Assembly: GCF_000196355.1 (NCBI RefSeq)
Contig: NC_007614.1
Span: forward strand, 2,550,001-2,582,000
Reading direction: 5' to 3'
DNA from: Nitrosospira multiformis ATCC 25196
GTDB lineage: Bacteria; Pseudomonadota; Gammaproteobacteria; Burkholderiales; Nitrosomonadaceae
Length of the DNA stretch: 32,000 nucleotides
A model generated the notes under the pieces. It was not told where the DNA came from and did no database searches. It saw only the letters and a program-made list of their open reading frames with translations. The translations under genes and the position numbers were made by a program. Shown piece after piece: positions 6,092-29,687 of this stretch. Each line of letters opens with the position of its first letter. Position 1 is the stretch's first letter.

Positions 6092-8662
6092 TCAGCCCGC
6101 CACCACCCGCTTGGTAATGTATCCGAGCGCTTCATCCACCTGATCGATGAGAATAAGGCACAATTCTCCCTCTTTCAGATTGTCAAACGCGGCATCAATG
6201 GCTCCGAACTCTCCGTAGATTTCCTTGACGTTCCGGGTGCGTTTCGCCTTTTCCAGGCCCTGCCGCAGCAGGCTCAGTACTTCCCCATCCGCACGGCCCC
6301 GCTGGCACTGATCCTGATAAAGCACCACTTCATCAAAAGCATCGCCCAATATTTCCGTCTGCCGCCGAATATCCTCGTCGCGTCGATCGCCAGCGCCGCT
6401 GATAACCACGGAGCGACGTTTCGCCGGAATCTTGTCGATCGCACTTACAAGTGCGCGAATCGCATCGACATTATGCCCATAGTCAGCAATAAGTGTAGCG
6501 CCCCGATGAGTGAAGAAATTGAAACGGCCGGGGGCAGTTTGCATGTCGCTGACAAAATTCGCGAGACCGCCGCGAATGATCTGCCAGTCAAGACCCACTG
6601 CCCAGCCCGCCGCTATGGCCGCCATCGCATTTTCAATCTGGAATGCGATGGCACCATTCTGTGTCACGGGAATCCCTGCAAACGGAAGGCGATATTCGAA
6701 ATTGCCTTCCGCAGCAACGATCGCATCGTCCTCGACATAAACGACACGTTTACGTTGGGCGCGATGCTTTGCGATCACGGGATTATCCGGATCACGCGCA
6801 AAAAAAGTGACCTTGCCGGGGCAATGAGCGGCCATGCCTGCGACAAATGGATCCGCTGCGTTCAGCACCGCCACACCCGTACCCGGCTTCACGTTCTGCA
6901 CGATGATGCGCTTGACGGCGGTGAGGTCTTCTACGGTATTGATGTAGGAAAGACCGAGGTGATCACCGACCCCGATGTTGGTAACCACTGCGACATCGCA
7001 ACGATCGAAAGCCAATCCTTCACGCAACAGGCCCCCTCTGGCAGTTTCAAGCACTGCCGCGTCCACATCCGGATGAAGAAGCACTTTTCTTGCACTCTTG
7101 GGACCGCTGCAATCGCCAGTGTCGATACGCTGCCCCTCAATATAGACACCATCCGTGCTCGTCATGCCGACACGCAAACCCTGGCAATCAAGAATATTGG
7201 CAATCATCCTGACAGTAGTCGTTTTGCCGTTGGTGCCTGTTACCGCCACTACCGGGATACGGGCATCATCGCCCTTCTTGAACATATTCGCAATGATCGC
7301 CTCTCCCACCGCACGCCCTTTGCCGAAAGAAGGTTGCAAATGCATGCGCAAACCTGGTGCTGCATTGATTTCGATAATAGCGCCTTGTCCCTCCAAAGGT
7401 CTGGCTACGCTTTGGCAGACAACATCTACTCCACAGATATCCAGGCCAATCATCTGCGCAGCTTCGACCATTCGCGCCGCGAACTCCGAATGAACTTCGT
7501 CGGTAACATCTGTCGCCGTTCCCCCGGTCGAAAGATTCGCATTATTTCTGAGAACTACCCGCGTACCCGAGGGCGGGACGGAGTCGGACGTCAAGCCCTG
7601 AGTTGCAAGGTGGGCAAGAGCGATTTCATCCAAATGAATCTTTGTAAGCGCGTTGGCATGTCCCTCACCGCGTCGCGGGTCACGGTTGATCTGCTCCACC
7701 AATTCTTCAACCGTGTGAATCCCGTCCCCTGCAACCTGGGGGGGCTCACGCCGTGCTGCGGCGATCAGCTTGTTGCCGACTACCAGCATGCGATAGTCGT
7801 GGCCGGGAATGTAGCGCTCGACCATTACTTTTCCGGTGACTTCAACTGCAACGGCATACGCTGCTTCCACCTGTTCGCGGCTCACGAGGTTCACGCGGAC
7901 TCCCCTTCCCTGATTGCCGTCCTGTGGCTTGACGACGACAGGGCTGCCGATTTCACAGGTCGCCACCCATGCATCTTCCGCACTTGTGACCGGCCTTCCG
8001 GGTGTGACAGGTACGCCCGCCGCGTCCAGCAAGAATCGGGTAAGCTCTTTGTCCTGCGCCACCGACTCGGCTACGAGGCTGGTGAGACAGGTTTCTGCAG
8101 CCTGAATACGCCGCTGTCTGCTACCCCAGCCGAATTGCACCATGCTGCCATCAGTCAGCCGGTGGAAGGGAATGCCGCGGGCAATCGCTGCCCGCACTAC
8201 TGAACCGGTGCTCGGCCCCAGGCGTATGTCTTCGGAGAGCTCACGCAGACGCTGCAGGGCATCCGCCAGATTGAAAGGAGTATCTTCTATAGCCGCGCTG
8301 CACAGGGCTTGTGCAAGATCAAAGGCGAGTCTGCCAACCGCCTCTTCGCTGTATTCCACGACGACCCGGTAGACGCCGGCTTCAAGGGTCGGGGCGATCT
8401 TGCCGAAAGCCACCGGACAACCCGCCTGTATTTCCAGTCCGAGTGCAGCGCGCTCGAGCACATGTGCAAGCATTTCCGCTTCAGGGCAAGAGGCGGCCCG
8501 AAGCAAATCGATTTCCGGAAATCGTGCGTACAGGCGATCCAGAAAACCCGACACGCCACCCGGCAGGGATTCAGGAGTGTCGCAGGAAACGACTGCCTCT
8601 ATGGCTGTCTGACGGCTCCACAAATTGGGCCCGCGCAAAGCGCGGAGACATGATACATGCAT
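6092..8662 (-). CDS. cphA: Cyanophycin synthetase, full-length (N domain + ATP-grasp G domain + complete Mur-ligase-like M domain)
   Basis: 856 aa. The N-terminus LRALRGPNLWS is typical of CphA. ATP-grasp core: VVVKPQDGNQGRGV...ERYIPGHDYRMLVVG. M domain has an intact P-loop VAVTGTNGKTTT (7217..7240), TNIGVGDHLG (6953..6982) and C-terminal lobe motifs PGRFN...DYGHN. Confidence 0.92.
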   Translation of the reverse strand: MHVSCLRALRGPNLWSRQTAIEAVVSCDTPESLPGGVSGFLDRLYARFPEIDLLRAASCPEAEMLAHVLERAALGLEIQAGCPVAFGKIAPTLEAGVYRVVVEYSEEAVGRLAFDLAQALCSAAIEDTPFNLADALQRLRELSEDIRLGPSTGSVVRAAIARGIPFHRLTDGSMVQFGWGSRQRRIQAAETCLTSLVAESVAQDKELTRFLLDAAGVPVTPGRPVTSAEDAWVATCEIGSPVVVKPQDGNQGRGVRVNLVSREQVEAAYAVAVEVTGKVMVERYIPGHDYRMLVVGNKLIAAARREPPQVAGDGIHTVEELVEQINRDPRRGEGHANALTKIHLDEIALAHLATQGLTSDSVPPSGTRVVLRNNANLSTGGTATDVTDEVHSEFAARMVEAAQMIGLDICGVDVVCQSVARPLEGQGAIIEINAAPGLRMHLQPSFGKGRAVGEAIIANMFKKGDDARIPVVAVTGTNGKTTTVRMIANILDCQGLRVGMTSTDGVYIEGQRIDTGDCSGPKSARKVLLHPDVDAAVLETARGGLLREGLAFDRCDVAVVTNIGVGDHLGLSYINTVEDLTAVKRIIVQNVKPGTGVAVLNAADPFVAGMAAHCPGKVTFFARDPDNPVIAKHRAQRKRVVYVEDDAIVAAEGNFEYRLPFAGIPVTQNGAIAFQIENAMAAIAAGWAVGLDWQIIRGGLANFVSDMQTAPGRFNFFTHRGATLIADYGHNVDAIRALVSAIDKIPAKRRSVVISGAGDRRDEDIRRQTEILGDAFDEVVLYQDQCQRGRADGEVLSLLRQGLEKAKRTRNVKEIYGEFGAIDAAFDNLKEGELCLILIDQVDEALGYITKRVVAG

Positions 8663-8710
8663 CGAAAGTTCTCCTAGCGTTTCTTATTCATGCGCCTTAG
8701 TGATATGTTT

Positions 8711-10951
8711 TTACACTCTGCTAAATGCATGGAAGCTTTCAATTCCCGCCCGTATGACGGCCGGTTCGATGCCGAGCGACCATGCCGCGGCTACTGCCGC
8801 AAGTATGTTTTCCACCTCCAAAGCCGCCTGCCCGTTACATGTAACCGGAACATCGTTCAATTTACTCAATGGCAGTTCACCGGGCCCGTTAACAAGTAAA
8901 ATTTCTCCGTTTCGAACTGTTACCGCCCGTTTGCCTTGAACGCCGTTTATACCGGCGGTACCGTGTAAACAATGCTCTTTTATTACCGGAAGATCGGAAT
9001 CCAGACTGAAGTAAATAATTTCCCCATTGCACAGTGCAGCCATTTCCACCAGCATCGGTTCCCTGGCATTGAGCACTGCCGCCCCTGCGGGCACGACTAC
9101 ATCCACTTGGGTACGCAACACGTCGAAGACCTGTTTAGGGGTTTCGATATATTTTCCATAATGACGGGTCAACTCCACATTGGTAATGATGCCGACATGG
9201 CAGCCGTCGTAGGCCAATCCCTCGCGGAGCATGCTGTCGCTGCCGTTTTCAAAAACCGCCGCCTCGATTGACCGGTTCATGAGGATGTTGCGCGCTGTCT
9301 TCCAGTTGGCCTGGTCGCCTTTTTTCACTTGTCTGCGGTCAAGATAGAAGCCGTCGCTGCATGCCAGACCCGCCTGCTTTCCGGAGAGCGCGAGCAGTTG
9401 GGCAATAAGATGAGCCAGCTCAGTCGTACCATAACTGCCGGTAATACCTACAATCGGAATGCGGCCGTCCTCGTGACTCGGAAAAAGGTGCTCGACGATC
9501 GCTTCGCCGACCGGCCGGGGAGTACCAATTGCGGGCTTGATGTGCATTAGCAAACCGGGTCCCGCATTGACTTCGACAATAGCACCACCCTGTTCTGCAA
9601 GCGGTCGCGCAATATCTGTGGCGACAAGATCGATGCCGGCAATATCCAATCCGACAACACGCGCCGCCAGCGATGCTGCCGCCGCCGTACTGGGATGCAC
9701 CTCGTCGGTAACATCGAAAGCATGGTTACCGTTACGCTGAATGATGACTTCCTGTCCCGCAAGCGGTATTGAATCCGTGGTGAAGCCTTGCCGCTGGAGT
9801 TCCATTATCGTTACCCCATCCACACGAACCGGATTCAGCGGATGCTCTTCACTTTCTCCCCGCCGGGGATCAGAGTTGATCTGCAGCTGGATCAGTTCGT
9901 TTACGGTGGAAATCCCATCGCCAGTAACCGAAACGGAATCCCCCCGGCTGGCGGCGACGAGGCGGCCCCCGACCACCAGCAGGCGGTGTTCCGTACCGGG
10001 AATATAACCCTCGACCAGGACACCGCTGCCCTCCTCCAGAGCTACCCTGTAAGCGGACTCGATTTCTTCACGCTTGCTCAACTCGATAAAAACGCCGCGT
10101 CCATGATTTCCATCACACGGTTTGATCACCACCGGCAGACCGATTTCCTGCGCCGCTTCCCATGCATCCTCAGCACTGTGAACGATGCGTCCCTCAGGGA
10201 TGGCGACACCGCACGATTGCAGCAACGCCTTGGTCAGATCCTTGTCGCGCGAGATGCTTTCTGCAATCGCGGGGGTGCGGTCCGTTTCCGCTGTCCAGAT
10301 GCGCTGGCTTCGGATGCCATAACCCAGCTGTACCAGATTGCCTTTGGCAAGAAGGCGAATTGCCGGAATGTTGCGCCTGGCGGCGGCTTCAACAATGCAG
10401 GCAGTGGATGGCCCGAGCCACAGCGAATCAACCATGCCGCGCAGACGCGCAACAGCGCCTCTCACATCGTAAGGCTCATCCCCCGGCGAATAATCCATTG
10501 CCGCAAGCAGCAATTCCCTTGCCGCTGCGAGAGCATTGCGCGCGACATCCTCATGCCAGGCGCTCACAGCCACCTTGTATACACCGCGCAGGGATGTTTC
10601 GCGCGCCCGGCCGAAGCCGCCGGGCATTCCGGCCAGATTTTGCAGTTCAAGCGTAACGTGCTCGAGGATATGACCGGTCCAGGTACCTTCCTTTAAACGG
10701 CGCAGAAATCCGCCCCGTTCTCCATAACTGCAGCGGTGCTCGATGAGCGAAGGAAGCCAGGAAGACAGGCATTCATAGAAACCGGGAATTGTGTCGGAGG
10801 GAAAATCTTCAAGTTCCCCGATATCGACTATGGCTTCAAGTACGGGACGAACACTCCAGATATTGGGTCCGTTGAGGTGGCGTATTTCAATAAACTTGAT
10901 ATCTCGATTTACCGCTATGTAGTCAGGTTTGATATCTGCGTAAGCCAGCAT
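8711..10951 (-). CDS. Cyanophycin synthetase paralogue (CphA'-type) with degenerate, C-terminally truncated M domain
   Basis: 746 aa, colinear with the downstream CphA through the N domain (IRHLNGPNIWS) and ATP-grasp domain (VVIKPCDGNHGRGV...EGYIPGTEHRLLVVG). The P-loop reads GITGSYGTTE, with no Lys (9419..9448). The DH motif reads TNVELTRHYG (9155..9184). The protein stops where CphA still has about 150 residues to go. The gap to cphA is 48 nt. Confidence 0.85.
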   Translation of the reverse strand: MLAYADIKPDYIAVNRDIKFIEIRHLNGPNIWSVRPVLEAIVDIGELEDFPSDTIPGFYECLSSWLPSLIEHRCSYGERGGFLRRLKEGTWTGHILEHVTLELQNLAGMPGGFGRARETSLRGVYKVAVSAWHEDVARNALAAARELLLAAMDYSPGDEPYDVRGAVARLRGMVDSLWLGPSTACIVEAAARRNIPAIRLLAKGNLVQLGYGIRSQRIWTAETDRTPAIAESISRDKDLTKALLQSCGVAIPEGRIVHSAEDAWEAAQEIGLPVVIKPCDGNHGRGVFIELSKREEIESAYRVALEEGSGVLVEGYIPGTEHRLLVVGGRLVAASRGDSVSVTGDGISTVNELIQLQINSDPRRGESEEHPLNPVRVDGVTIMELQRQGFTTDSIPLAGQEVIIQRNGNHAFDVTDEVHPSTAAAASLAARVVGLDIAGIDLVATDIARPLAEQGGAIVEVNAGPGLLMHIKPAIGTPRPVGEAIVEHLFPSHEDGRIPIVGITGSYGTTELAHLIAQLLALSGKQAGLACSDGFYLDRRQVKKGDQANWKTARNILMNRSIEAAVFENGSDSMLREGLAYDGCHVGIITNVELTRHYGKYIETPKQVFDVLRTQVDVVVPAGAAVLNAREPMLVEMAALCNGEIIYFSLDSDLPVIKEHCLHGTAGINGVQGKRAVTVRNGEILLVNGPGELPLSKLNDVPVTCNGQAALEVENILAAVAAAWSLGIEPAVIRAGIESFHAFSRV

Positions 10952-11344
10952 AAAGTGAGAGTCTCACAAGAAATAAGTTAAGTTGAACTAACGCGGCTGA
11001 CTACAATGGGTTTACAACCAGATAAATTAATATGAAAAGTAAATGCTTTTCTCACGAGAATTTCACTTTCAGTACGAAGTCCCCATCCGCAAGAAATCAA
11101 GCATGGATTATGCCAGCTAAAATAATCTTTGCAAAACAGTTGTTTGGAGCAGAAAAGCAGGCAATTCTGTCGCCATTTGCCGACAATCGGTTTCCCGGCG
11201 AAATTATGCCGTTGATATCACGGGGATGTTATATGTCTCCTGTCAGCGACAGGCTGCGCAGAGGAATACGGGAAGCAGGGAATACGAACGCTGCTCCCCC
11301 CACTGGCAGCGGCGGAAGCAGTACCTCGCCGCCGGGACTTTGAA

Positions 11345-11824
11345 TCACAGGAAGCGGTCGAGAAGCTTCCGGCTGTGATGATCGAGCGCCGTACGGTCGC
11401 GTATCAGGAAGTTGATGTTCTGGCTGTCGGTGATCAGCAAAGCGACTGGAGTCAGGCGGCGAATGTATTCTTCGCCCTTGAGAACGAATGATGTACTACC
11501 GCGGTCGGTTTCAACCCGCCAGGTGCAGGGGGTAGCAAAACTTGAAACTGCCTCGATGCGTTTGATTTCCGGCATGAACTCCCGGTTGGCAAGATCCGTT
11601 TCAACATGCTTGCGCGTCTCCTCGGGGAGGTCGCTCAATGCCTCGATCCATGCCAGCTCATGGCCATCCGCATCGACCAGCGAGATACCGCGGCCGGGAG
11701 CGGTAATGGGAAAAGCCCGCACCGGAACCACGCCCTCTCGCACTTCCCCGTTCGCCCCGGTAAATACCAGTCGCCCAAAGGCATTGCGGTGCAGGGAGTA
11801 GTATAAGGGCGTTTTTTCCGTCAT
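11345..11824 (-). CDS. DUF1854-family protein (cyanophycin-cluster-associated, function unknown)
   Basis: 159-aa ORF whose ATG overlaps the ABC transporter stop (ATGA at 11821..11824). From memory, its size and sequence style (GRLVFTGANGEVREGVVPVRAFPIT...FMPEIKRIEAV...W.VETDRG) match DUF1854, which is paired with this ABC type. This needs an HMM check. Confidence 0.65.
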   Translation of the reverse strand: MTEKTPLYYSLHRNAFGRLVFTGANGEVREGVVPVRAFPITAPGRGISLVDADGHELAWIEALSDLPEETRKHVETDLANREFMPEIKRIEAVSSFATPCTWRVETDRGSTSFVLKGEEYIRRLTPVALLITDSQNINFLIRDRTALDHHSRKLLDRFL

Positions 11825-14169
11825 TCCCGGCCACCTTCAGCCCTTGGCTCCGGCTCCGGGCTCAGCCTGCGCAGATCGTCCTCCGTGTCCACATTACGCA
11901 CTTGCGCCAGGTAAAGCCGGTAGTAATGCCCTTCCCGGGCCATGAGTTCATCATGATTGCCTATCTCGATAACGCTCCCACGGTCAAGCACGATAAGCCG
12001 ACTGGCGTCGCGCAAGGTGGAGAGCCTATGTGCAATCGCGATGGTAGTCCGGCCCCGCACCAGGTTTTCGAGCGCTTTCTGGATCTCTTTCTCGGTGGTC
12101 GTATCCACCGAGGATGTCGCTTCATCCAGGATCAGAATACGCGGATCGATGAGCAGTGCCCTTGCTATCGATATGCGCTGCCGCTCCCCGCCCGAGAGCG
12201 CCTGGCCCCGTTCACCAACCAGAGAGTCATAGCCGTGCGGCAGGCGGAGAATAAACTCATGCGCATGCGCGGCTCGCGCGGCGGCAACGATTTCCTCCTG
12301 CGTCGCGTTCGGTTTGCCGTAGGCAATATTCTCCGCAATGGTGCCGAAAAACAGAAAAGGTTCCTGAAGAACAAGTCCGATATGCTTGCGGTATTCCGCG
12401 ACCGGAAGCGCGCGTATATCCACGCCATCCAGCAGGATTGCGCCTTCCGTCACGTCGTAGAAACGGCAGATCAGATTGACGAGCGTACTCTTGCCTGAGC
12501 CGCTATGCCCTACCAGACCCACCATTTCACCTGGTTCGATAGTTATATTGATGCCATGCGTGACTGTGCGGGTACCGTAGCGGAACTCGACGTTTCGCAA
12601 CTCGATTCGCCCATCTACGACGGGCAGGTGCACGGGGTGGGCAGGCTCTGGAACGCTGGAAACGTGGTCGAGAATTTCGAAGATGCGTTTGGTGCCGGCA
12701 GCGGCCTTTTGTGTAAACGAGACGATGCGGCTCATCGAATCCAGTCGTACATAGAAACGGCTGATGTAGGTGAGAAAAGCCGTCAGCACTCCTACCGTAA
12801 TCTCATCTTTTGATACCTGCCAGATACCGAAAACCCAAACCACCAGCAAACCGACCTCGGTCAGCAGAACGACCGTTGGCGTGAACATCGACCAGACTTT
12901 GTTGACCCGGTCATTGACTTCCCGGTTGCGTTCATTGGCGGCGCGAAAGCGGATTGCTTCACGCTTCTCTTGGGCAAACGCCTTTACCACCCTCACCCCG
13001 GGGATGGTATCGGCAAGCACGCTGGTCAACTCAGCCCAAACGCGATCGACCTTTTCGAACCCGGTCCGCAACTTGTCGCGAACGATATGGATCAACCACG
13101 CAATGATCGGTAAGGGCGTCAGGGTCACCAGCGCAAGCCACGGCTCGATCGAAACCAGGATAATGGTCGTCATGCCGATCATCAGCACGTCGGTCGCGAA
13201 ATCGAGCAGATGAAGCGACAGGAAAATGTTGAGGCGATCTGTTTCCGACCCGATGCGCGCCATGAGATCGCCGGTACGCTTGCCGCCAAAATAGGCGTGC
13301 GAGAGTTTAAGCAGATGCTCAAAAGTGGCTGTGCGCAAATCAGCGCCGATACGCTCGGAAACCAGGGCGAGCACGTAAGTGCGCGCCCATCCCAATCCCC
13401 AGGCCACAATCGCGGCTCCGAGCAGTCCGGTCAGATAAAACTCAACCAGTTCAACGTCAATCGGTTTACCGTTCTGGTAGGGAATCAGTACGTTGTCCAT
13501 CAGGGGCATGGTCAAGTACGGAGGTATCATCGCCGCTCCCGTGCTGCCGAGCGTCAAAAGAAAACCGGCAAAAAGCCTCCACTTGTAGGGCCTTGCGAAA
13601 CGCCACAAACGTAACAGAGTCCAGGTGGACGGAGGCGCGTGCACTTGCTTGCGGCACGCTTCGCACTCCTCCTGCCCCGGAGCCAGCGGGACATCCAGTA
13701 CCCTGTGGCACTTGGGACAGAGAACCTGTACAGGTAAAGGACGGAACTCCCCTGTCAAGTGATTATGAAGCTGCTCCCGGAAATTATCGATGAGCCGGGT
13801 GGCCGCAGCATCCTTCCCCAACGTGTAGCGCCAGCGTGCGAGCAGCGCGTTCTCATCGAAGAGTTCAAGGCTGCCGACGCCTGCGTGATCACTGCGCACA
13901 AGCGTCAGTCCAGGCCGGTAACTCCACTCCTGTAACGTTGCCTCCGCCCCCGCCCCTGCCTCCGCCTGGACGAGCAGACGCTTATTGGTGACGACTACTA
14001 GTCCGGGATCAAAATGCAGTCGGCCATTGAGGTCAGTTTCGAGCCATGCCGCCACCTTTTCTTCCCTGGAAAGCCGGGATTCAACAGCCGCAATCCAGGT
14101 AGCCGGCAGAGCAGGCGCTCCTGACAGCATGTCATTGGGAAAAATCGGCGAAAGCCCGGATTCCGGCAT
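11821..14169 (-). CDS. ABC transporter, fused permease/ATPase (type I exporter half-transporter) with ~185-aa N-terminal cytoplasmic extension
   Basis: 782 aa. NBD motifs: Walker A GHSGSGKST, signature LSGGERQRISIARA, Walker B ILILDEATSSVD, H-loop IAHRLST. A six-helix ABC_membrane region precedes the NBD. The N-terminal extension has a PH-like LVVVTNKRLLVQ motif and CPKC-x14-CEAC. Confidence 0.9.
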   Translation of the reverse strand: MPESGLSPIFPNDMLSGAPALPATWIAAVESRLSREEKVAAWLETDLNGRLHFDPGLVVVTNKRLLVQAEAGAGAEATLQEWSYRPGLTLVRSDHAGVGSLELFDENALLARWRYTLGKDAAATRLIDNFREQLHNHLTGEFRPLPVQVLCPKCHRVLDVPLAPGQEECEACRKQVHAPPSTWTLLRLWRFARPYKWRLFAGFLLTLGSTGAAMIPPYLTMPLMDNVLIPYQNGKPIDVELVEFYLTGLLGAAIVAWGLGWARTYVLALVSERIGADLRTATFEHLLKLSHAYFGGKRTGDLMARIGSETDRLNIFLSLHLLDFATDVLMIGMTTIILVSIEPWLALVTLTPLPIIAWLIHIVRDKLRTGFEKVDRVWAELTSVLADTIPGVRVVKAFAQEKREAIRFRAANERNREVNDRVNKVWSMFTPTVVLLTEVGLLVVWVFGIWQVSKDEITVGVLTAFLTYISRFYVRLDSMSRIVSFTQKAAAGTKRIFEILDHVSSVPEPAHPVHLPVVDGRIELRNVEFRYGTRTVTHGINITIEPGEMVGLVGHSGSGKSTLVNLICRFYDVTEGAILLDGVDIRALPVAEYRKHIGLVLQEPFLFFGTIAENIAYGKPNATQEEIVAAARAAHAHEFILRLPHGYDSLVGERGQALSGGERQRISIARALLIDPRILILDEATSSVDTTTEKEIQKALENLVRGRTTIAIAHRLSTLRDASRLIVLDRGSVIEIGNHDELMAREGHYYRLYLAQVRNVDTEDDLRRLSPEPEPRAEGGRE

Positions 14170-14439: not shown

Positions 14440-15315
14440 TCACCTCCGCCGTGCTCCGAGCACAGCACCCACGGTAACCGCCCCCAATCCCGCCAAAGTG
14501 AGCAGAGGCAGAGGTTCCCCCAGAACAGGCACAGCCGCCAATGCAGATATGACGGGCACGAATGCCATCAGCAAGGCGACCGTCTGCGACCCGAGGCGAC
14601 GCACAGCGAACGTATAGAGCAGCATCGCGATAAAGACGACCAGCACGCCCTGATACGCTGCCTGGAGGATGATTTCGCGGAGCGGTGCCAGTGCGAGATT
14701 GCTGGGCAGAAATAACAGCCAGACAGGCAGGTAAACTGCAGCGCTGCCCAGGGTGGTCGTTACAGTGGCAGCAAGCGGCGGCATCGGATAGCGTGCGAGC
14801 AGCAGCGTGAATATCGCCCACAATGAGGAGCCGCAAAGAAATAGCACATCACCGAGAATTTGCGTGGGAGATATATGTGTTCCGAGTGAGAGCGAGTCAG
14901 CGGCGGTCAGCAGGATACCGGCAAAAACAATAAGCAGCGCCAGCCGCCGTGCGCCGGTAAATTTTTCGCCGAACCACAGCCACGCAATGATCGCGGTCAG
15001 AAAAGGCAGCGTGCCAGGCAACAGCACGGAAGCATGAGCTGCCGGCGCCCAGCGGAAAGCAGCGTATACCACCGCAGCGTAACCGATACCGCCGAACAGC
15101 GAGAACAGGGCTATCACCTTGAGTGGAGGCAACAGGATGCGCGGCAAGAAAAAGACGGCGATCGAAGCGCCTACCCCGAATCGCAGTAGGGCAATGTCCC
15201 AGCTTGTCAACGTCCCCATTCCCCCATATCGGCTGACGAGAATGAAACCGGTCCAGATGCATATGGAAAAGAAGACCGCTATCCAGCCGCTCCAGGATTT
15301 GAGTGCTTCGCTCAT
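14440..15315 (-). CDS. DMT-superfamily (EamA-type) transporter
   Basis: 291 aa, about 10 predicted hydrophobic helices, with the Gly/Ala/Leu-rich composition typical of a duplicated EamA domain. It begins 111 nt downstream of the C-S lyase gene on the same strand. Confidence 0.8.
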   Translation of the reverse strand: MSEALKSWSGWIAVFFSICIWTGFILVSRYGGMGTLTSWDIALLRFGVGASIAVFFLPRILLPPLKVIALFSLFGGIGYAAVVYAAFRWAPAAHASVLLPGTLPFLTAIIAWLWFGEKFTGARRLALLIVFAGILLTAADSLSLGTHISPTQILGDVLFLCGSSLWAIFTLLLARYPMPPLAATVTTTLGSAAVYLPVWLLFLPSNLALAPLREIILQAAYQGVLVVFIAMLLYTFAVRRLGSQTVALLMAFVPVISALAAVPVLGEPLPLLTLAGLGAVTVGAVLGARRR

Positions 15316-15426
15316 GATTTGTATTGAAACAGCTTATTGTCTGGTTGTTCTTTGTTGCAGCTGTTTCATGGGTACGAGCAGAGCTTCCCTTTCCGGGAAA
15401 ACAGGCCTGCCGGAGCTTCCATACGC

Positions 15427-16656
15427 TCAGGCGCTCCCCTGCTTTGCTTTTTTGTGCACAGCTTTTCTGATGCTTTCAAGGGCTGCTTCGATGGTGCTGC
15501 GGGGCGCACCGATGTTCATACGCATGAAACCGCTGCCTTCTGCGCCAAACAAAGTGCCGGGACTCATGCCGATACCCGCTTCGTGCACAAAAAAATGCCT
15601 GAGCTGGATATCCGTCATTCCCAGTGCGTTCATCAATTCGTGGCAATCAAACCAGAGCAGATACGTGCCTTCGGGCTCGATGAGGTGGATTTCCGGAAGG
15701 CGAGTCGCCAGATATTCTGAGACAAAATCACGGGTTTCCTGTAGATAAACCAGCAATTCATCCAGCCAGACCTCCCCTTCCCGATAGGCTGCCTCGAAAG
15801 CAGCAATGCTGAAAGGATTGGATGCGCTGACATGCAGGATATCGAACGTCCGCGCAAGCTCCTCCCGATGCCTGGAATCCGGCACGACAAGTGCGGAAAG
15901 ATTCAATCCGGGAATATTGAATGTCTTGCTGGGAGCGACAGCTGTTATGACATTCGCCTTGCTTCCAGCCCATGTTTTCGCCAGCCGGGAGAGTATATGA
16001 TGCCTGGCTTCGGAATAAACCAGATCAGCGTGGATTTCGTCGGAAAATACCACGAGATCGTGTTTATCCGCTATCCGCAGGATGCGCTCGAGCTCTCCCC
16101 TGCTCCACACCCTGCCGACGGGATTATGCGGCGAGCATAGAAGCAGAAGACGTGCGCCTTGCGCGCATTGCTCGAGATGATCGTAATCGATCTCATAATG
16201 ACCATTCCGCAACCGCAAGGGATTCTGTACGAGTTGCCTGCCTGTAGCGGTGACAGCAGAAAAAAAGGGGAAATATACCGGCGGCTGTACGATAACCGAT
16301 GCTCCGGGGGGGGCAAAGGTCATGATGACGGCATGCAACGACGGAACAACGCCGGGACACATCATAATCCAGTCCCGCTCGATCTCCCAGCCATGACGGC
16401 GCCGCAGCCAATCCATCAGCGACTCATACAAACTGTCGGGAAAGACAGTGTACCCGTACACCGGATGAGCGGCACGTCGGGAAAGCGCCTGGGTGACCGC
16501 GACTGGAGCGGCAAAATCCATATCCGCGACCCATAGGGGAATCACTCCCGCTGCGCCGAACATGCTTTGGCGCCCATCGTATTTCAGGCTGGCTGTCCCG
16601 GTCCGGTCGATTTCCTTATCAAAATCCTGGTCCGCAATGGGAGCACTTCTGTTCAA
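15427..16656 (-). CDS. PLP-dependent C-S lyase, PatB/MalY family (OvoB-like, putative ovothiol sulfoxide lyase)
   Basis: 409 aa. The N-terminal FDKEIDRTGTASLKYD motif and overall aminotransferase class I/II architecture are typical of MalY/PatB. The only possible start upstream of that motif is TTG at 16656, which overlaps the ovoA stop (TTGA). GGAG lies 8 nt upstream. Confidence 0.8.
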   Translation of the reverse strand: MNRSAPIADQDFDKEIDRTGTASLKYDGRQSMFGAAGVIPLWVADMDFAAPVAVTQALSRRAAHPVYGYTVFPDSLYESLMDWLRRRHGWEIERDWIMMCPGVVPSLHAVIMTFAPPGASVIVQPPVYFPFFSAVTATGRQLVQNPLRLRNGHYEIDYDHLEQCAQGARLLLLCSPHNPVGRVWSRGELERILRIADKHDLVVFSDEIHADLVYSEARHHILSRLAKTWAGSKANVITAVAPSKTFNIPGLNLSALVVPDSRHREELARTFDILHVSASNPFSIAAFEAAYREGEVWLDELLVYLQETRDFVSEYLATRLPEIHLIEPEGTYLLWFDCHELMNALGMTDIQLRHFFVHEAGIGMSPGTLFGAEGSGFMRMNIGAPRSTIEAALESIRKAVHKKAKQGSA

Positions 16657-18839
16657 GCAGTTTTCTCCCAGATTGTTACTTCCGAGAGCGTGTGCTGGAA
16701 TTTACGGCGTGTTTCGCGAATGACAAATGGAACCTCCGTAGGCCCTTGAATGAGCCTGAAATGGGCACCCAGAATTTCTTTCAGGCCATCGAGCGTTCCG
16801 AAACTTTCACCATCCCGCTTGAATCCGCCGATCCAGGCTTCCCGCTTGGTATGTTCCTCCAGCCAGGTATAGGGAGAAGCAATCAGCAAAATACCGCCGG
16901 AATTGATGCGGGTATGTATGGATGTAAGCAGTTTGGCCGGATCATAAAGACGGTCTATGAGATTCGCCGCGAGGATCAGGTCGTAACCCGTATATATAGG
17001 TTTGAGGTTACAGGCGTCCCCTTGATAAAACGCCACCTTATGCCTGACCCCGTCCAGGCCCAGTCCAGCCAGCGTCCGCTCCCGGTAAAGGACCAGATCG
17101 CCTTCATCGGCCAGGGTATAGCGTAACACCCCTTGCGACGCCAGCTGCACTCCCTGTCCGATGAAACGGGCGGAGAAATCCACTCCTGTCACCTCATCGA
17201 AATGCCGCGCCAGTTCAAAAGCAGCTCGCCCCGACGCGCAACCCAGGTCGAGCGCCTTGTGTGCAGGCTTGTCTCCCATGGCGGCAATAGCGAGTTCCGC
17301 CAGCGCTTTCGGGAAATTTGGCACATCGAAATAAGTGTCTCCATAATGGAATTCAGCATATTCGGAGAGCAGCTTGTCGGTTTCGTAGTGCGAGCCATGC
17401 TGAATCGCCGGGGCAGTTCCGACGACGTAGCGAAAACCCGCGTGCTGAAAGAAATGGCGGCGAAAGGCGTAACGTGAGTTCTTCAAGGATTCATTGCCAC
17501 AGGAAATCCAGGAGCCTCCCTTGATGAGGTTGTGCCTGCCATCGAAGGTGGGTGTTGTGAAATCATCATAGTGGGGATGAACATCAAAGCCATCGAAAGG
17601 ATAGATGGGCGTTTCAGTCCATTGCCACACGTTTCCCACCACATCATAAAAATCACCCTGGGCAAATTCGTTGACAGGGTGGCTGGAGGCCCCATGGTCG
17701 AGATGAATATTGGCCATGGCCGGTGCAGCAGCCGGAACCTCGGATAATCCCGCTACTTCATAGAGCCGGTACCATTCGTCTTCGGTCGGGAGGCGGTAGG
17801 GCTGGCCACTTACGGCCGCCTTCCAGTTACAGAAAGCCTTGGCTTCGTGATAATTCACCTCCACAGGCCAATCCCAAGGCATGGAAATTTCCTTGGTCAT
17901 CAGGCGCAACTCCCACTCCCCGCCTCGCCGGATCCAGAAGGTGGGATGCTTCGCGCCAGCATGCTTCAGCCAGGCGCGTCCCTCCTCTTCCCAGTAACTT
18001 TCGGTTTCATAGCCGTCTGCCTGAACAAACTCCAGGAATTCCTGATTACTCACCAGGTATTTGCCGGCTTCGAAGGCTGCAACGTCCGCAATGTGAGTAC
18101 CGTATTCGTTATCCCATCCATAGAAAGGATCGTCTTTTTTCTTGCCAAGCTGCACCGTGCCTTCCGGTACTTTCACCAGCTGATTGTCGGGCGCCGGTCC
18201 GGATTTACGGCAGGGTTCCCATGCAGGATGGGGAGCAACATGTTCCAGCGCATGCTGCCGGATAAGGACGGACGAAGTTTCGAGATGAATGCGCTCGTGT
18301 TCGATACCCATCATGATCGTCCACCAGGGGCTGTCCCATTCAATGGGCAAGGTCAGAGGCGTTTCACGGATGAGTCGATCGACAGTTTCCCGCATCCTTC
18401 TGCGATAGGCTCGCACCTCTTCGACAGAAGGCCAATCGTAATGCGTCGTATCCAGATCGTCCCAACTCATTTCATCGACACCCACTGCGAACATCGATTC
18501 CATTTTTGGGTTGATGCGGTCAGTGATCAGACCCGCGAGCAGGAGTTTATTGGTAAAGAAGGTTGCGGTATGGCCGAGATAGAATATGAGCGGGTGACGC
18601 AATGAAATGGGCTTTTTGAAGTAGGCCGCGTCTCCTCGCAACGTTTCGAAGAGTTGCTCGTAACGGTCCAGCGTGGAATGAAAGTATTCGCGTATTTCCT
18701 CACGCTTTGCCGCAGCATTACCTCCGGCAAGAACAGGAGTTCGGGAAAAGAGTTGTTTGGGCATTACACGCAACTTGGGGTTTTCGGAAGCAGATTGAAC
18801 AGCTGTGGTTGTTTTCTTTGCATTCAAATTCATGTTCAC
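16653..18839 (-). CDS. ovoA: 5-histidylcysteine sulfoxide synthase / mercaptohistidine N-methyltransferase OvoA
   Basis: 728 aa with the three-domain OvoA layout. The DinB-like N-domain has LIFYLGHTATFF and the iron motif HERIHLE (Hx3HxE). The central FGE-sulfatase-like domain has NVWQWT and GGSW. The C-terminal SAM methyltransferase has ALDLGCASGRAAFELA. Confidence 0.9.
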   Translation of the reverse strand: MNMNLNAKKTTTAVQSASENPKLRVMPKQLFSRTPVLAGGNAAAKREEIREYFHSTLDRYEQLFETLRGDAAYFKKPISLRHPLIFYLGHTATFFTNKLLLAGLITDRINPKMESMFAVGVDEMSWDDLDTTHYDWPSVEEVRAYRRRMRETVDRLIRETPLTLPIEWDSPWWTIMMGIEHERIHLETSSVLIRQHALEHVAPHPAWEPCRKSGPAPDNQLVKVPEGTVQLGKKKDDPFYGWDNEYGTHIADVAAFEAGKYLVSNQEFLEFVQADGYETESYWEEEGRAWLKHAGAKHPTFWIRRGGEWELRLMTKEISMPWDWPVEVNYHEAKAFCNWKAAVSGQPYRLPTEDEWYRLYEVAGLSEVPAAAPAMANIHLDHGASSHPVNEFAQGDFYDVVGNVWQWTETPIYPFDGFDVHPHYDDFTTPTFDGRHNLIKGGSWISCGNESLKNSRYAFRRHFFQHAGFRYVVGTAPAIQHGSHYETDKLLSEYAEFHYGDTYFDVPNFPKALAELAIAAMGDKPAHKALDLGCASGRAAFELARHFDEVTGVDFSARFIGQGVQLASQGVLRYTLADEGDLVLYRERTLAGLGLDGVRHKVAFYQGDACNLKPIYTGYDLILAANLIDRLYDPAKLLTSIHTRINSGGILLIASPYTWLEEHTKREAWIGGFKRDGESFGTLDGLKEILGAHFRLIQGPTEVPFVIRETRRKFQHTLSEVTIWEKTA

Positions 18840-19144: not shown

Positions 19145-19843
19145 TTATTGGACCCGCAGAGCATCGGGACGTAATTTTAGCTGAACACGTCCGGAGTTCC
19201 CAAACGACAAGTGGAGGAAGGGAAAAATAGTGGCGACCATGAACTGCAACTGTCCAGCCTGCAGGAATAGGGTGCGTCCTACACATTTCCATCCCAGATG
19301 GCTGTGCGCCCGGCGCGAGGCGATATTCGTCCGGGTGACACGGCTGAAGGTATATTTTATCCCTCGCTCCTGGAGATATCGATTGGCTCCGCTCCACATG
19401 CCGATAAATCCTCGACCCATGCGGTATTCGGGAAAAAGGTAGAAATCGAAATCGAAAACCGCTTCGCCTGCAGGCGACACCAGGAAGACGCAGCGAACCT
19501 CGTCCTCTATATAGGTATTGGGACAAAACCACATATACCCGATAAATTTCCCCTTTTGAAAAGCACCAAGACAAACCGCACTCTGCTCGAAACGGGCCTC
19601 CTTTATGTCCGGTCGCGCTGGCATAAGCTCCACTTCCGGATCACCTCGCTTGATCTCACGAATTTCAAGGTTCCTGCTTAACCGCTCCGGAATAAGCGGC
19701 TCTTTGTGAATTGGCTGGACCATAATGTCGTAGAAATACAGTCGCAGGCTGGGAGAAATGCTGGCAAGAAAACGGTCTGACAGATACAGCAGACCAGCAA
19801 AAAATCCGAATTCCTTGAAAAGGGCAGCAAGTTTTTGAAGCAT
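19145..19843 (-). CDS. GNAT-like acetyltransferase-fold protein (putative)
   Basis: 232-aa ORF. The segment FDFYLFPEYRMGRGFIGMWSGANRYLQERGIKYTFSRVTRTNIASRRAHSHLGW resembles GNAT motif A/B (Q/RxxGxG/A followed by N..S...H..LGF). I have no closer assignment. Confidence 0.5.
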   Translation of the reverse strand: MLQKLAALFKEFGFFAGLLYLSDRFLASISPSLRLYFYDIMVQPIHKEPLIPERLSRNLEIREIKRGDPEVELMPARPDIKEARFEQSAVCLGAFQKGKFIGYMWFCPNTYIEDEVRCVFLVSPAGEAVFDFDFYLFPEYRMGRGFIGMWSGANRYLQERGIKYTFSRVTRTNIASRRAHSHLGWKCVGRTLFLQAGQLQFMVATIFPFLHLSFGNSGRVQLKLRPDALRVQ

Positions 19844-21636: not shown

Positions 21637-22899
21637 ATGCGCAAACTTTTGATTGTCTCGGCTGGATTGCTATTGAGTTTTTCCCTGATCCTGGTCGTCC
21701 TAATCTCGCTCGCCATTGAAGATCGCCCCCGCATCAACCGTCAGGTCGTCCTGACACCCGATCACATAGAACGCGCAAAGCGCATTGTGGATAAGCATCG
21801 CTACTGGGTACGTCCGGGAATGTTCGCCGCTGCAAGGATAATGCCGGCGGATGCGGATCTGGCCGTAAATTATCTGGCGCGCAGGCTCCTGAAAGGCAGC
21901 GCTCACCTCACCCTTGCCCATCGAAGCGCAGTGATCCGCCTCAGCATTCCCCTTTCCGAGACTCCACTCAGCCGCTACTCGGATAGGTATCTCAACATTC
22001 AGGCATCTTTAGTCGAGACCGATCGCCTGCCACACCCCCGCTCGATCCAGGTCGGCAAACTTTCGTTGCCCGACGCGCTTACAGACATGCTCATGCCCCG
22101 GATACTGGAATGGTTAAGAGAGAGCCCGGAATACAAGGCCAGTTTGGATTCGCTTCGGATGGTAAAGGTTTCCCCGGATGAATTGACCATTGTTTATCGT
22201 TGGCGAGGTGGCCTCTCCCACGGAATGAAGGCCTCGATCATCGGCGAAGAGGAGCGCGAACGTTTGCTTCGTTATCAACGTCTGCTGGTGGAAAGCAGCA
22301 GAATAGGCGAGAAGGAATTACCGCTGTCGGCCGTGCTTTCACCGCTCATGCGTGCAGCTGCTGCGCAATCGACGGAAGCCGGCCCGCGTGCTGAAAACCG
22401 CGCCCTTATTCTGGTGGCCACGGCACATGTGCTGGGCATCTCCCTGAAACGGATTCTTCCAGGAAAAACAAACTGGCCCCGAGCCGAGCCCCAGGTGGTA
22501 ACCCTGGATGGCCGTGACGATTTTGCCAAGCACTTCATGGTATCCGCCGCGATTGCCGCCTATGCCGACACCGCGCTCGCGGATGCAATCGGGTTATACA
22601 AGGAATTCGAGGACTCCCGCCATGGCAGCGGCTTCTCCTTTAACGATCTTGCTGCAGATCACGCAGGCACAAAATTTGGAGAAAAAGCAGTAGCAAGCGA
22701 GACATCAGCCCAGCAACTTCAGTATCGCGTCCTCTCCGGCATTGAGGACACGGATTTGATGCCCTTCTGGTCCGATCTGCCGGAATTCATGCGGGAAGCC
22801 GAATTCAAAAGACGCTTCGGAGGAACCGGAACGCCAGCCTATGAAGAAATGATGCGAATTATCGAGCAACGGGTAGCGGATCTGGACGTGTTGCAATAA
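21637..22899 (+). CDS. Hypothetical protein, N-terminally membrane-anchored, 420 aa
   Basis: Long ORF with no competing frame. It has one N-terminal hydrophobic helix (LLIVSAGLLLSFSLILVVLISLAI) and a soluble remainder. I recognise no family motif. Confidence 0.6.
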   Translation: MRKLLIVSAGLLLSFSLILVVLISLAIEDRPRINRQVVLTPDHIERAKRIVDKHRYWVRPGMFAAARIMPADADLAVNYLARRLLKGSAHLTLAHRSAVIRLSIPLSETPLSRYSDRYLNIQASLVETDRLPHPRSIQVGKLSLPDALTDMLMPRILEWLRESPEYKASLDSLRMVKVSPDELTIVYRWRGGLSHGMKASIIGEEERERLLRYQRLLVESSRIGEKELPLSAVLSPLMRAAAAQSTEAGPRAENRALILVATAHVLGISLKRILPGKTNWPRAEPQVVTLDGRDDFAKHFMVSAAIAAYADTALADAIGLYKEFEDSRHGSGFSFNDLAADHAGTKFGEKAVASETSAQQLQYRVLSGIEDTDLMPFWSDLPEFMREAEFKRRFGGTGTPAYEEMMRIIEQRVADLDVLQ

Positions 22900-23140: not shown

Positions 23141-23533
23141 TTATAGTCTGTTGAGGAACGATGAAATCGTCGGCCACGTCCACGCATCGATCTCGCGGTC
23201 TCCAACGGGTTCAGGCAGTTTGGAGGGGAGCTTGTCAGAATCTCCGTGAATAAGCAGTACAGGCATCCTCGCATCGTAGGCGCAACGCAGTTCCCACTGC
23301 TGGCCGTCGGCTCTGACATAGTTTTTGGTAATCAGGCCAATCACGCCATCACATCCCCTCACCGTCTCCCGGCACTCGTCTTTCCAGGAAGGCTCCCAGG
23401 ATTGTTTGACAGGCATCTCCACAAAGGAAAATGTTGTTTGCTCCTTGTTCAATTGCTCCAGCAGCTGATCGTGAGCACTCCTGTCCTTGAGTGCAAAACT
23501 GATAAAGACCTTGTTTGTTTTTTCAGCCATCAA
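23141..23533 (-). CDS. Stand-alone TIR-like domain protein (DUF1863 / ThsB-type)
   Basis: 130 aa. The KVFISFALKDRS start and CDGVIGLITKNYVRADGQQWELRCAYDARMPVLLIH follow the ThsB/DUF1863 pattern (vFiSf...D ... vvvli...t..S.Wv.wEi..a...g.piigv), including the conserved W-E. Confidence 0.65.
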   Translation of the reverse strand: MMAEKTNKVFISFALKDRSAHDQLLEQLNKEQTTFSFVEMPVKQSWEPSWKDECRETVRGCDGVIGLITKNYVRADGQQWELRCAYDARMPVLLIHGDSDKLPSKLPEPVGDREIDAWTWPTISSFLNRL

Positions 23534-23625
23534 TTACCCCCTCATTTATTATTAGCGCAGAATTCCAAGTCCCAATCATCCTCTCCGCCAGCAGCGGCAG
23601 GCTCTCCCTTGATCGTTCAAATATC

Positions 23626-24015
23626 TCACGCTCCTGAGCCGCGCCTTGCGGTTACCTGTATCTCGATGCGCATACGCGGATCGGACAGTCCGGCGGCCAG
23701 CATCATTGCCGCTGGCCTTACATCCCCGAGATATTTCCGGAATACGGGCCAGCACTTGGGGAAGTTGGCAGCCTCAGGCAATATATAGGTGACCCGCACA
23801 ATATCTCTCATGCTTGCCCCGGCCTCATCCAGAGCAGCACCGATATTTCTGAAACATTGTTCAGTCTGCTCGAGAAGATCGTCCGAAATTGTCATTTTGC
23901 TGTAGTCAAAGCCTGTCGTGCCTGAGACGAAGACCCAGTCACCCTCAACCACAGCCCTGGAGTAACCGATCTCCTGTTCGAAGGTGGAGCCTGAACTGAT
24001 CAATCTGCGTGTCAT
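23626..24015 (-). CDS. RidA/YjgF-family protein
   Basis: 129 aa. GYSRAVVEGDWVFVSGTTG...EQTEQCFRNIGAALDEAGASMRDIVRVTYIL...RMRIEIQVTA matches the RidA-family fold pattern. Confidence 0.85.
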   Translation of the reverse strand: MTRRLISSGSTFEQEIGYSRAVVEGDWVFVSGTTGFDYSKMTISDDLLEQTEQCFRNIGAALDEAGASMRDIVRVTYILPEAANFPKCWPVFRKYLGDVRPAAMMLAAGLSDPRMRIEIQVTARRGSGA

Positions 24016-29680: not shown

Positions 29681-29687
29681 CCGTCTC

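Follow-up and report, generated by a model that had tools for sequence, protein, structure and literature searches.

The cyanophycin synthetase cluster of Nitrosospira multiformis

The stretch of DNA considered here, hereafter the window, comprises 32,000 nucleotides of the ammonia oxidiser Nitrosospira multiformis ATCC 25196 (contig NC_007614.1, positions 2,550,001 to 2,582,000), and it contains four consecutive minus-strand genes which in 5' to 3' order encode an ATP-binding cassette (ABC) half-transporter, a protein of the DUF1854 family and two cyanophycin synthetase homologues, CphA' and CphA (Table 1). The coordinates that a first-pass annotation had assigned to these genes agree exactly with the open reading frame (ORF) listing, and the overlap it reported between the first two of them, in which the stop codon of the ABC gene and the start codon of the DUF1854 gene share an ATGA, is indeed read in the sequence as gaATGAcgg. 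The cphA' and cphA genes are separated by a gap of 48 nt that contains an AGGAG. Neither a Peptidase_S51 cyanophycinase nor an Asparaginase_2-type isoaspartyl peptidase was found among the 23 window ORFs scanned with Pfam, in agreement with the annotation, which had listed no cyanophycinase or isoaspartyl dipeptidase, and Rfam gave no match anywhere in the window.

The annotation had furthermore taken the cluster for an undescribed system, and in this respect it has to be corrected, since the curated NCBIfam models NF052233 and NF052234, the cofitness data of Price et al. (bioRxiv 10.1101/072470) and the description in PMC10687191 already cover it. The Nitrosospira locus is a typical copy of this already catalogued four-gene cluster. 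Price et al. (bioRxiv 10.1101/072470) found DUF1854, the ABC gene, cphA and cphA' to be cofit in Acidovorax 3H11 and Cupriavidus basilensis 4G11, with mutants showing motility or pleiotropic stress phenotypes, and in their proposal an amino-acid polymer is exported to the cell wall by an efflux pump of which DUF1854 forms a subunit; they also noted that a few genomes fuse DUF1854 to the ABC protein. The Cupriavidus/Acidovorax cluster has the same four families as the window, where each of them scores above a curated cut-off, the same order of ABC followed by DUF1854, and likewise no cyanophycinase. The 'Group 1' cluster of PMC10687191, found in activated-sludge taxa, comprises two cphA genes and an ABC transporter and no cphB, and cphA was present in every Nitrosospira genome examined there. 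What does stand of the earlier interpretation is that the module is real, conserved and biochemically uncharacterised, although both its catalogue entry and the export hypothesis had been published before: no biochemistry of the ABC or DUF1854 members of the cluster was found in the searchable literature, and the label 'cyanophycin metabolism-associated' that the databases attach to both proteins derives, as the annotation had noted, from genomic context only.

Table 1. Features of the cluster and of its surroundings, with positions counted from the first nucleotide of the window
Feature	Position	Strand	Basis
CphA, full-length cyanophycin synthetase, 856 aa	6092..8662	minus	ORF and profile matches
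CphA', degenerate truncated cyanophycin-synthetase paralogue, 746 aa	8711..10951	minus	ORF and profile matches
DUF1854-cphA' spacer, 393 bp, probable independent promoter	10952..11344	minus	motif matches
Conserved block GCTGTAAACCnATT...CGTTAGT	~10985-11020	minus	alignment of spacers
Putative sigma-54-type -24/-12 element TGGCATaatccATGCT	11100-11115	minus	motif match
TGTC-N10-GACA palindrome	11168-11185		motif match
TGTC-N10-GACA palindrome	11234-11251		motif match
DUF1854 protein, 159 aa	11345..11824	minus	PF08909 and NF052234
ABC half-transporter, ABCB/MsbA type, 782 aa	11821..14169	minus	NF052233, ABC_membrane and ABC_tran
Predicted PH-like domain, ABC residues ~20-140, cytoplasmic	13750..14112	minus	AlphaFold2 and Foldseek
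Putative four-cysteine zinc ribbon CPKC...CEAC, ABC residues ~148-175	13645..13728	minus	invariant cysteines
EamA-family transporter	14440-15315	minus	
PatB-family C-S lyase	15427-16656	minus	TIGR04350 527 bits
OvoA	16653-18839	minus	TIGR04344 697 bits and TIGR04345 342 bits
Sucrose synthase	25147-27627	minus	
Sucrose-phosphate synthase/phosphatase fusion	27515-29779	minus	
PfkB-family sugar kinase	29688-30602	minus	

Conservation of the cluster

A neighbourhood census, of the kind that the annotation had suggested, was carried out with one genome per GTDB species and a single DUF1854 protein as query. Relatives were found at 227 loci, of which the best 80 were analysed; these span 59% to 97% DUF1854 identity, the use of a single query protein limiting the census to about 59% or more, and the uppermost value belongs to the Nitrosospira multiformis-type strain Nl18, whose DUF1854 protein is 97% identical to that of the window. 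The ABC gene lies immediately upstream of DUF1854 in 76 of the 80 loci, and the contigs of the remaining four end less than 800 bp upstream. The synthetase genes cphA'/cphA are found within 10 kb of the pair in 63 of the 70 evaluable loci (90%), leaving seven without and a further ten that were not evaluable. The collinear order ABC-DUF1854-cphA'-cphA, as in the window, occurs at 37 loci (Nitrosospira, many Nitrosomonas, Accumulibacter and Rhodocyclaceae), whereas cphA' and cphA are transcribed divergently from ABC-DUF1854 at 26 (Cupriavidus, Herbaspirillum, Noviherbaspirillum, Achromobacter, Thiobacillus and Gallionella), an arrangement that is also seen in Moraxellaceae, in a Luteolibacter genome (L067) and in Ralstonia chromids. 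The fact that adjacency survives inversion is good evidence for a functional link between the four genes. When the ORFs of 85 loci were clustered, no other gene proved to be a widespread companion of the four; membrane-fusion proteins, outer-membrane factors, binding proteins and cyanophycinases in particular were missing from the conserved neighbours.

The suggestion made in PMC10687191 that the cluster is a composite transposon finds no support here, the flanks being clpA and an EamA/ovothiol operon, the synteny genus-specific, and the sole 'plasmid' matches non-mobilisable Ralstonia replicons of 1.8-2.0 Mb. Some individual loci deserve mention. In a diverged member from a metagenome (L003:5516-7300) a Fic-domain gene and two small ORFs lie between the ABC and DUF1854 genes, with an MR_MLE enolase-superfamily gene just downstream of DUF1854. 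The Nitrosomonas oligotropha-type loci (L034, L035, L037, L041, L042, L045 and L050) have the pair among housekeeping genes, flanked by an extracytoplasmic function (ECF) sigma factor gene, a GGDEF gene, argJ, mnmE, yidC and an acetylglutamate-kinase-type gene, and on the 4.7-kb contig L085, which carries neither ABC gene nor cphA, a DUF1854 gene sits between an OprB porin gene and a PSCyt2/PSD1 gene.

Two synthetases with complementary losses

The annotation had described the 856-aa protein as a full-length CphA and the 746-aa protein as truncated, and both descriptions hold. CphA passes the cut-offs of NF010623 (1226.8 bits, cut-off 877) as well as TIGR02068 (973.5, cut-off 850), it has both Mur_ligase_M and Mur_ligase_C, and it matches the solved CphA1 enzymes with E-values of 1e-182 to 1e-185. 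When aligned to PDB 7WAC it is seen to possess VTGTNGKTTT, LETARGG, GDHLG and ANLSTGG. CphA' on the other hand matches NF010623 with 1066.6 bits over model positions 1-716 of 871 only and lacks Mur_ligase_C, and its score of 745 against TIGR02068 is below the cut-off of 850 of this CphA1 equivalog model. An alignment of CphA' to PDB 7LG5 places GITGSYGTTELA at the canonical VTGTNGKTTT and QR-----NGNHAF at the canonical RATANLSTGGIAI, and its M domain has the P-loop GSYGTT without lysine, ENGSDS in place of ETARGG, RH in place of DH and no M lid.

The residues that underlie these differences were scored in 61 CphA and 61 CphA' orthologues from the census loci, with functional roles taken from PMC9262961 and PMC9427784 (Table 2). 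The CphA' counts out of 62 refer to extracted sequences and include one artefact, namely an L063 sequence that seemed to hold all motifs because the extracted ORF reads through a stop codon into cphA. In the window the C-x19-HxxEH motif of CphA' is found at residues 74-98, and the corresponding part of the CphA N domain reads HVLER with no cysteine at position -20. Apart from the glutamine in place of His267, the G- and M-domain motifs of CphA, E-x-N among them, are intact. According to the same two papers the mutation H267A inactivates canonical CphA1, and canonical enzymes are impaired by K499A and also by removal of the M lid. The primer-generating C-x19-HxxEH site is present in about 80% of CphA1s.

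Table 2. State of functional residues and motifs in CphA and CphA' orthologues
Motif (role)	CphA	CphA'
G-omega large loop ANLSTGG (N394/S396 bind incoming Asp)	61/61	five-residue deletion in all true orthologues
M-domain P-loop GTNGKT (K499 essential)	61/61	6/62, one being the L063 artefact
P-loop lysine (GxxGK[TS])		47/62; lost in window copy
ETARGG	61/61	lost in all true orthologues
DH dyad (D585/H586)	61/61	often lost
C-terminal M lid	present	missing in most lineages
His267 (stabilises acyl-phosphate)	Gln in 61/61	His in 61/62
N-domain C-x19-HxxEH (zinc endopeptidase, cuts cyanophycin into primers)	0/61	62/62

Judged by their motifs, CphA and CphA' are degenerate in complementary ways, with the ligation motifs kept in CphA and the N-domain peptidase motif kept in CphA', a pattern that is not described in the literature searched. 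The distribution of intact sites is the same as in an engineered N-G+M+/N+G-M- heterodimer of Synechocystis CphA1 (SuCphA1; Sharon et al. 2022, PMC9262961), which was active in vitro and had similar rates when primer was supplied. That heterodimer was however made by mutagenesis, whereas the CphA/CphA' split is natural and is kept in 61 genomes. The degree of reduction also varies, since the CphA' of Cupriavidus is full length (888 aa) and keeps GTNGKT, unlike the truncated Nitrosospira protein, which has lost the lysine of the M-domain P-loop. The possibility that CphA' is a dipeptide polymerase similar to the cyanobacterial CphA2 was considered, as CphA2 too has a truncated and inactive M domain, but it was rejected because CphA2 needs the G-omega large loop (N393 and S395) and is without the N-domain motif, while CphA' is the opposite on both counts, the loop being deleted and C-x19-HxxEH present in all orthologues. 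Compared with canonical cyanophycin metabolism, in which CphA1, CphB and an isoaspartyl dipeptidase serve cytoplasmic granules, the CphA of the window shares the N-G-M architecture and most G and M motifs, but the activities are split over two paralogues, His267 is replaced by glutamine in CphA, an ABC transporter is attached, and the window is without CphB, CphE or dipeptidase. The complementary site loss amounts to a concrete and testable model of synthetase cooperation. Furthermore, the retention of a cyanophycin-specific peptidase site in CphA' argues that the product is cyanophycin-like, and with one subunit devoted to cleavage the mature product could be short, in keeping with the failure to see granules.

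The ABC transporter and its N-terminal module

The ABC protein scores 1393.9 bits against NF052233, the 'cyanophycin metabolism-associated ABC transporter' (cut-off 880), and the alignment, in which residues 19-766 correspond to model positions 13-753 of 766, includes the N-terminal extension. Pfam locates the six-helix ABC_membrane domain at residues 199-471 and ABC_tran at 538-686, and the translation contains Walker A (GHSGSGKST), signature (LSGGERQR), Walker B (ILILDEATS) and H-loop (AHRLST) motifs. The closest solved structures, which relate to residues ~181-760 only, are ABCB1/ABCB4, TM287/288, MsbA and Sav1866. From sequence this part of the protein is an ordinary exporter core of the ABCB/MsbA type (type IV fold) with intact ATPase motifs, and an outward direction of transport is inferred from family membership only. 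The protein does not appear to be a type I secretion transporter of the HlyB type, since it scores 401 against TIGR01846 (cut-off 725.55) and has no membrane-fusion or outer-membrane partner among the widely conserved neighbours of the 85 loci, nor the lipid A flippase MsbA, with 460.4 against TIGR02203 (cut-off 602) and 369 against NF008381 (cut-off 867), and its profile scores against ChvA and other named ABC families are all under the family cut-offs as well.

In front of this core the annotation had recognised a novel module, and the word uncatalogued is fair inasmuch as the first ~185 residues have no above-threshold Pfam match and the N-terminal ~180 residues no solved relative. A match to bPH_3 does exist below the threshold (17 bits against 23, E = 0.0086). 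An AlphaFold2 model of this part (predicted local distance difference test, pLDDT, 89; predicted template modelling score, pTM, 0.71) consists of seven strands (39-116), a long capping helix (117-139), a small ribbon and an elbow helix, in this order. In a Foldseek search of the PDB all 50 of the 50 best matches to the model were PH or PH-like domains (PTB/FERM-type) with a probability of about 1.0, the target-normalised template modelling (TM) scores, which refer to single-domain targets, being mostly 0.45-0.64. The ribbon, which sits between the PH-like domain and the elbow helix and first transmembrane segment, contains the cysteines C151, C154, C169 and C172; these are invariant in 27 orthologues, across which the PH-like domain is conserved too. 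The N-terminus furthermore gives a weak match to Zn_ribbon_IS1595, and one family member (P0479) has a precomputed match to the zinc-ribbon family PF13248. On the predicted structure, we interpret the novel module as a cytoplasmic PH-like domain followed by a zinc ribbon, an assignment that is not described in the literature searched.

A profile of the PH/zinc-ribbon module retrieved almost solely N-terminal fragments of the same ABC family, from Betaproteobacteria and one Gemmataceae genome. A 324-aa metagenomic protein (P0461) also matches it (E = 4e-29) and has precomputed matches to the solute-binding-protein families PF13416 and PF01547, which may mean that the gene call is chimeric or that the module also occurs in another architecture.

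The DUF1854 protein

The 159-aa protein matches PF08909 over profile positions 2-130 of 130 (E = 1.2e-54, 184.1 bits, cut-off 26.8), as anticipated in the annotation, and NF052234, the 'cyanophycin metabolism-associated DUF1854 family protein', with 235.3 bits (cut-off 150). The family is sizeable: among 1.84 billion representatives it accounts for 1473 clusters at 50% identity (E <= 0.001). No sequence relatives are present in the PDB. The AlphaFold2 model (pLDDT 88, pTM 0.56) has two tandem modules of six strands and one helix each, for which Foldseek gave no match at E <= 0.001, the best among the weak ones being the Plk4 cryptic polo box and the tandem-PH protein Rtt106 at TM < 0.27; the uncertain orientation of the two modules, reflected in the pTM, may be part of the reason. 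An internal duplication, or a common origin with the PH-like domain of the ABC protein, was considered, and as the hhalign probabilities were below 7% no claim is made in this respect. The predicted folds of DUF1854 and of the ABC N-terminal module nonetheless look like those of binding domains and not like those of enzymes, and the two-module fold of DUF1854, without resemblance to an enzyme, is likewise not described in the literature searched.

This bears on the idea that DUF1854 is itself the missing cyanophycin-degrading enzyme of Betaproteobacteria. The idea has some appeal, as Betaproteobacteria with cphA lack a recognisable cyanophycinase (PMC5178258) and as the polar residues T105, R107, G108, D147 and S150 of the protein are nearly invariant, but two small beta-sheet-plus-helix modules are predicted without any hydrolase-like match, an endo-cyanophycinase motif is already at hand on CphA', and DUF1854 is consistently paired or fused with the ABC protein and not with the synthetases, all of which makes a hydrolase scarcely credible.

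Natural fusions indeed speak for a different role. In the 866-aa protein P0224, and in the fragments P0145 and P0177, DUF1854 is placed C-terminally, after the nucleotide-binding domain of the ABC protein. Since such fusions exist and since DUF1854 has no signal peptide, it would act at the cytoplasmic face, and we predict that it is the cytoplasmic partner of the ABC transporter. P0224 fits the ABC family model from position 154 onward only and has neither PH domain nor cysteine ribbon, and a fusion that is missing the PH/zinc-ribbon module is again not described in the literature searched. From this single example we infer that the PH/zinc-ribbon module may normally dock the free DUF1854 protein and become dispensable once DUF1854 is covalently tethered.

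Proposed function

We regard the chances as about even that the four genes constitute a module which makes a cyanophycin-like aspartate/arginine polymer or oligomer, and that this product is exported from the cytoplasm by the ABC and DUF1854 proteins. The proposal draws together the gene content, domain architectures, motif states and conserved linkage observed in this analysis with the cofitness known from the literature. In such a module CphA would supply both ligase activities by way of its ATP-grasp G domain and its Mur-ligase-like M domain, and CphA' would be a catalytically reduced partner contributing the N-domain zinc endopeptidase motif that in canonical CphA1 cuts nascent chains into primers, and the two would form a heteromer in the manner of the engineered Synechocystis enzyme. 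The product, probably a polyaspartate backbone with arginine side chains and either polymeric or oligomeric, would be made in the cytoplasm, received from the cytoplasmic side by a homodimer of the ABC half-transporter and moved across the inner membrane at the expense of ATP, with the PH-like domain, the zinc ribbon and DUF1854 as candidate adaptors that recruit the substrate or gate its passage at the cytoplasmic face. As the neighbouring genes include none for a membrane-fusion or outer-membrane component, the product would end up in the periplasm or cell envelope.

Other transporters of polymers offer parallels to such an arrangement. Wzt carries a carbohydrate-binding domain after its nucleotide-binding domain and HlyB an N-terminal C39-like domain, and by analogy with Wzm/Wzt and HlyB an extra cytoplasmic domain placed before the membrane domain or after the nucleotide-binding domain would recruit the polymer substrate. 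NdvA/ChvA is an MsbA-like half-transporter that exports cyclic glucan, and by this analogy a lone half-transporter would deliver to the periplasm. The PH/zinc-ribbon and DUF1854 modules are however without sequence or fold relationship to the modules of Wzt and HlyB, and the window cluster has no membrane-fusion/TolC partner.

As far as can be judged from its motifs, the exporter-type core with intact ATPase motifs supports export. A storage role is furthermore doubtful, since no cyanophycinase is present in the window or reported in Betaproteobacteria (PMC5178258), and since, in the account of Adames 2013 that is given in PMC8560796, overexpression of the R. eutropha H16 homologues did not lead to detection of cyanophycin. 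The conserved linkage to cphA would nonetheless fit equally well with a pump that exports not the polymer but arginine, aspartate, beta-Asp-Arg or a by-product, as an overflow valve coupled to the activity of the synthetase. Small or amphipathic substrates are the best-documented ones for an ABCB-type cavity, as in the relatives ABCB1, TM287/288 and Sav1866, and in Nitrosomonas arginine-biosynthesis genes (ArgJ and acetylglutamate-kinase-type) lie within 10 kb of the pair, which may be a coincidence. Efflux of small molecules is however unlikely. The cofitness of transporter and synthetase follows more simply from a synthetase product that depends on the pump, and two dedicated, conserved cytoplasmic modules of binding type, PH/zinc ribbon and DUF1854, would be unusual in a simple amino-acid effluxer. 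The same modules may instead suggest that the ABC and DUF1854 proteins translocate nothing and serve to anchor or control the synthetase at the membrane, for example by coupling polymerisation to ATP or nitrogen status or by nucleating the deposition of polymer, since modules of the PH-like and the tandem beta/alpha kind commonly serve as adaptors that bind proteins or ligands, the accessory modules are all cytoplasmic, and cofitness is also expected if the synthetase needs the complex to work. A mere anchor is in poor agreement with the retention of the transmembrane domain and the ATPase motifs at 65-97% identity between genera, and we consider this role quite unlikely.

Several points do weigh against export of the product. 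Cyanophycin is insoluble at neutral pH, and a large branched polymer would have to pass through an ABCB-type cavity. The G site is non-canonical in both paralogues, CphA having Gln at the position of His267 and CphA' being without the aspartate-binding loop, which leaves doubt about whether the pair is active and what it makes. Nor can the direction of transport be read from the fold, as exporter-fold importers such as IrtAB, YbtPQ and Rv1819c exist. In addition, the ABC-DUF1854 pair of seven Nitrosomonas oligotropha-type genomes has no cphA gene within 10 kb of it, an orphan DUF1854 gene (47% identity) is found on the planctomycete-like contig mentioned above (L085:2084-2566), and at one metagenomic locus (P0302) an Asparaginase_2 (isoaspartyl-peptidase-type) gene is inserted between the ABC and DUF1854 genes, which ties the pair to beta-aspartyl dipeptide metabolism and is no less compatible with the use of beta-Asp-Arg in the cytoplasm than with export. 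The pair may from this perspective take up cyanophycin fragments or beta-Asp-Arg, for cytoplasmic hydrolysis or as primers, a notion that agrees with the P0302 insertion, with the persistence of the pair in the N. oligotropha clade without adjacent cphA and with the cytoplasmic accessory domains of exporter-fold importers such as IrtAB, and a CphA devoid of the primer-making motif could benefit from imported primers. Most members of the fold are however exporters, the conserved neighbours include neither a periplasmic binding protein nor an outer-membrane component for uptake, and the cofitness was seen in pure culture in defined media with no external cyanophycin (Price et al., bioRxiv 10.1101/072470), and we find salvage distinctly improbable.

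Returning to export, a narrower form of the proposal, which we put forward as possible though somewhat doubtful, is that the split synthetase, with ligation by CphA and endo-cleavage by CphA', makes short and soluble (beta-Asp-Arg)n oligomers, and that these are exported by the ABC protein for a function in the envelope and not for storage in many Betaproteobacteria, among them ammonia oxidisers and polyphosphate accumulators. DUF1854 and the PH/zinc ribbon would again be the adaptors, delivery would be to the periplasm or cell surface, and the oligomers may have roles in motility, stress or biofilm.

The question is of some consequence, since cyanophycin is regarded as a purely intracellular nitrogen store and specialists state that canonical cyanophycin systems have 'no known export process' (PMC9974463). 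Furthermore, it has been a puzzle since the early 2000s that many Betaproteobacteria, among them nitrifiers and phosphate accumulators relevant to wastewater treatment, have two cphA genes and neither cyanophycinase nor granules. Export of the product by the ABC and DUF1854 proteins, if real, would give the polymer a role in the envelope or outside the cell, would call for a revision of nitrogen-recovery schemes built on intracellular cyanophycin in these organisms, and would open a secretion route for a polyamide of commercial interest. If it is oligomers that are exported, this would be the first export pathway for cyanophycin-type material and would explain why cyanophycinase and granules are missing. 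Specific predictions that can be checked follow from the complementary losses in the two synthetases, from the reading of the N-terminal module as a PH-like domain and zinc ribbon, and from the fusion without this module.

The DUF1854-cphA' spacer

The spacer between DUF1854 and cphA' contains a -24/-12 element of the sigma-54 type, TGGCATaatccATGCT; nowhere else in the 32-kb window is TGGCAY-N5-WTGCT matched, against a chance expectation of 0.11. At 53 and 119 nt upstream of the element are two TGTC-N10-GACA palindromes, likewise the only two of the window (0.43 expected in the whole window). In diverged Nitrosospira-type loci the element is kept as TGGCACG-N4-nTGCT while its flanks diverge. 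The spacer resembles a sigma-54 promoter with enhancer sites for cphA'-cphA, an assignment that is provisional because a sigma-70-like match overlaps the same bases as the element. Since the spacer appears to have a conserved promoter of its own, the Nitrosospira locus probably consists of two transcription units and not of one operon. The collinear gene order and the promoter-like spacer both distinguish it from the locus of Cupriavidus, where the arrangement is divergent. The element is absent from the spacers of Nitrosomonas and Accumulibacter, and the spacers of other lineages measure just 56-160 bp and lack it.

A second conserved block, GCTGTAAACCnATT...CGTTAGT, is found about 35-70 nt upstream of the cphA' start in seven of the seven Nitrosospira-type spacers that were aligned. 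It has no Rfam match and could be an element of the 5'-untranslated region or the binding site of a regulator.

Other genes in the window

Directly upstream of the ABC gene lies an ovothiol-type operon with a transporter gene (14440-18839, minus strand; Table 1), which is probably unrelated to the cyanophycin module because its synteny is confined to Nitrosospira (9 loci). Three ORFs in the range of 150-420 aa, at 21637-22899 (plus strand), 23246-23788 (plus strand) and 24090-24551 (minus strand), have no match in Pfam or NCBIfam, and an ORF at 19145-19843 (minus strand) has only a marginal match to GNAT in these databases. Finally, a sucrose metabolism cluster, comprising the last three genes of Table 1, occupies positions 25147-30602 of the minus strand.

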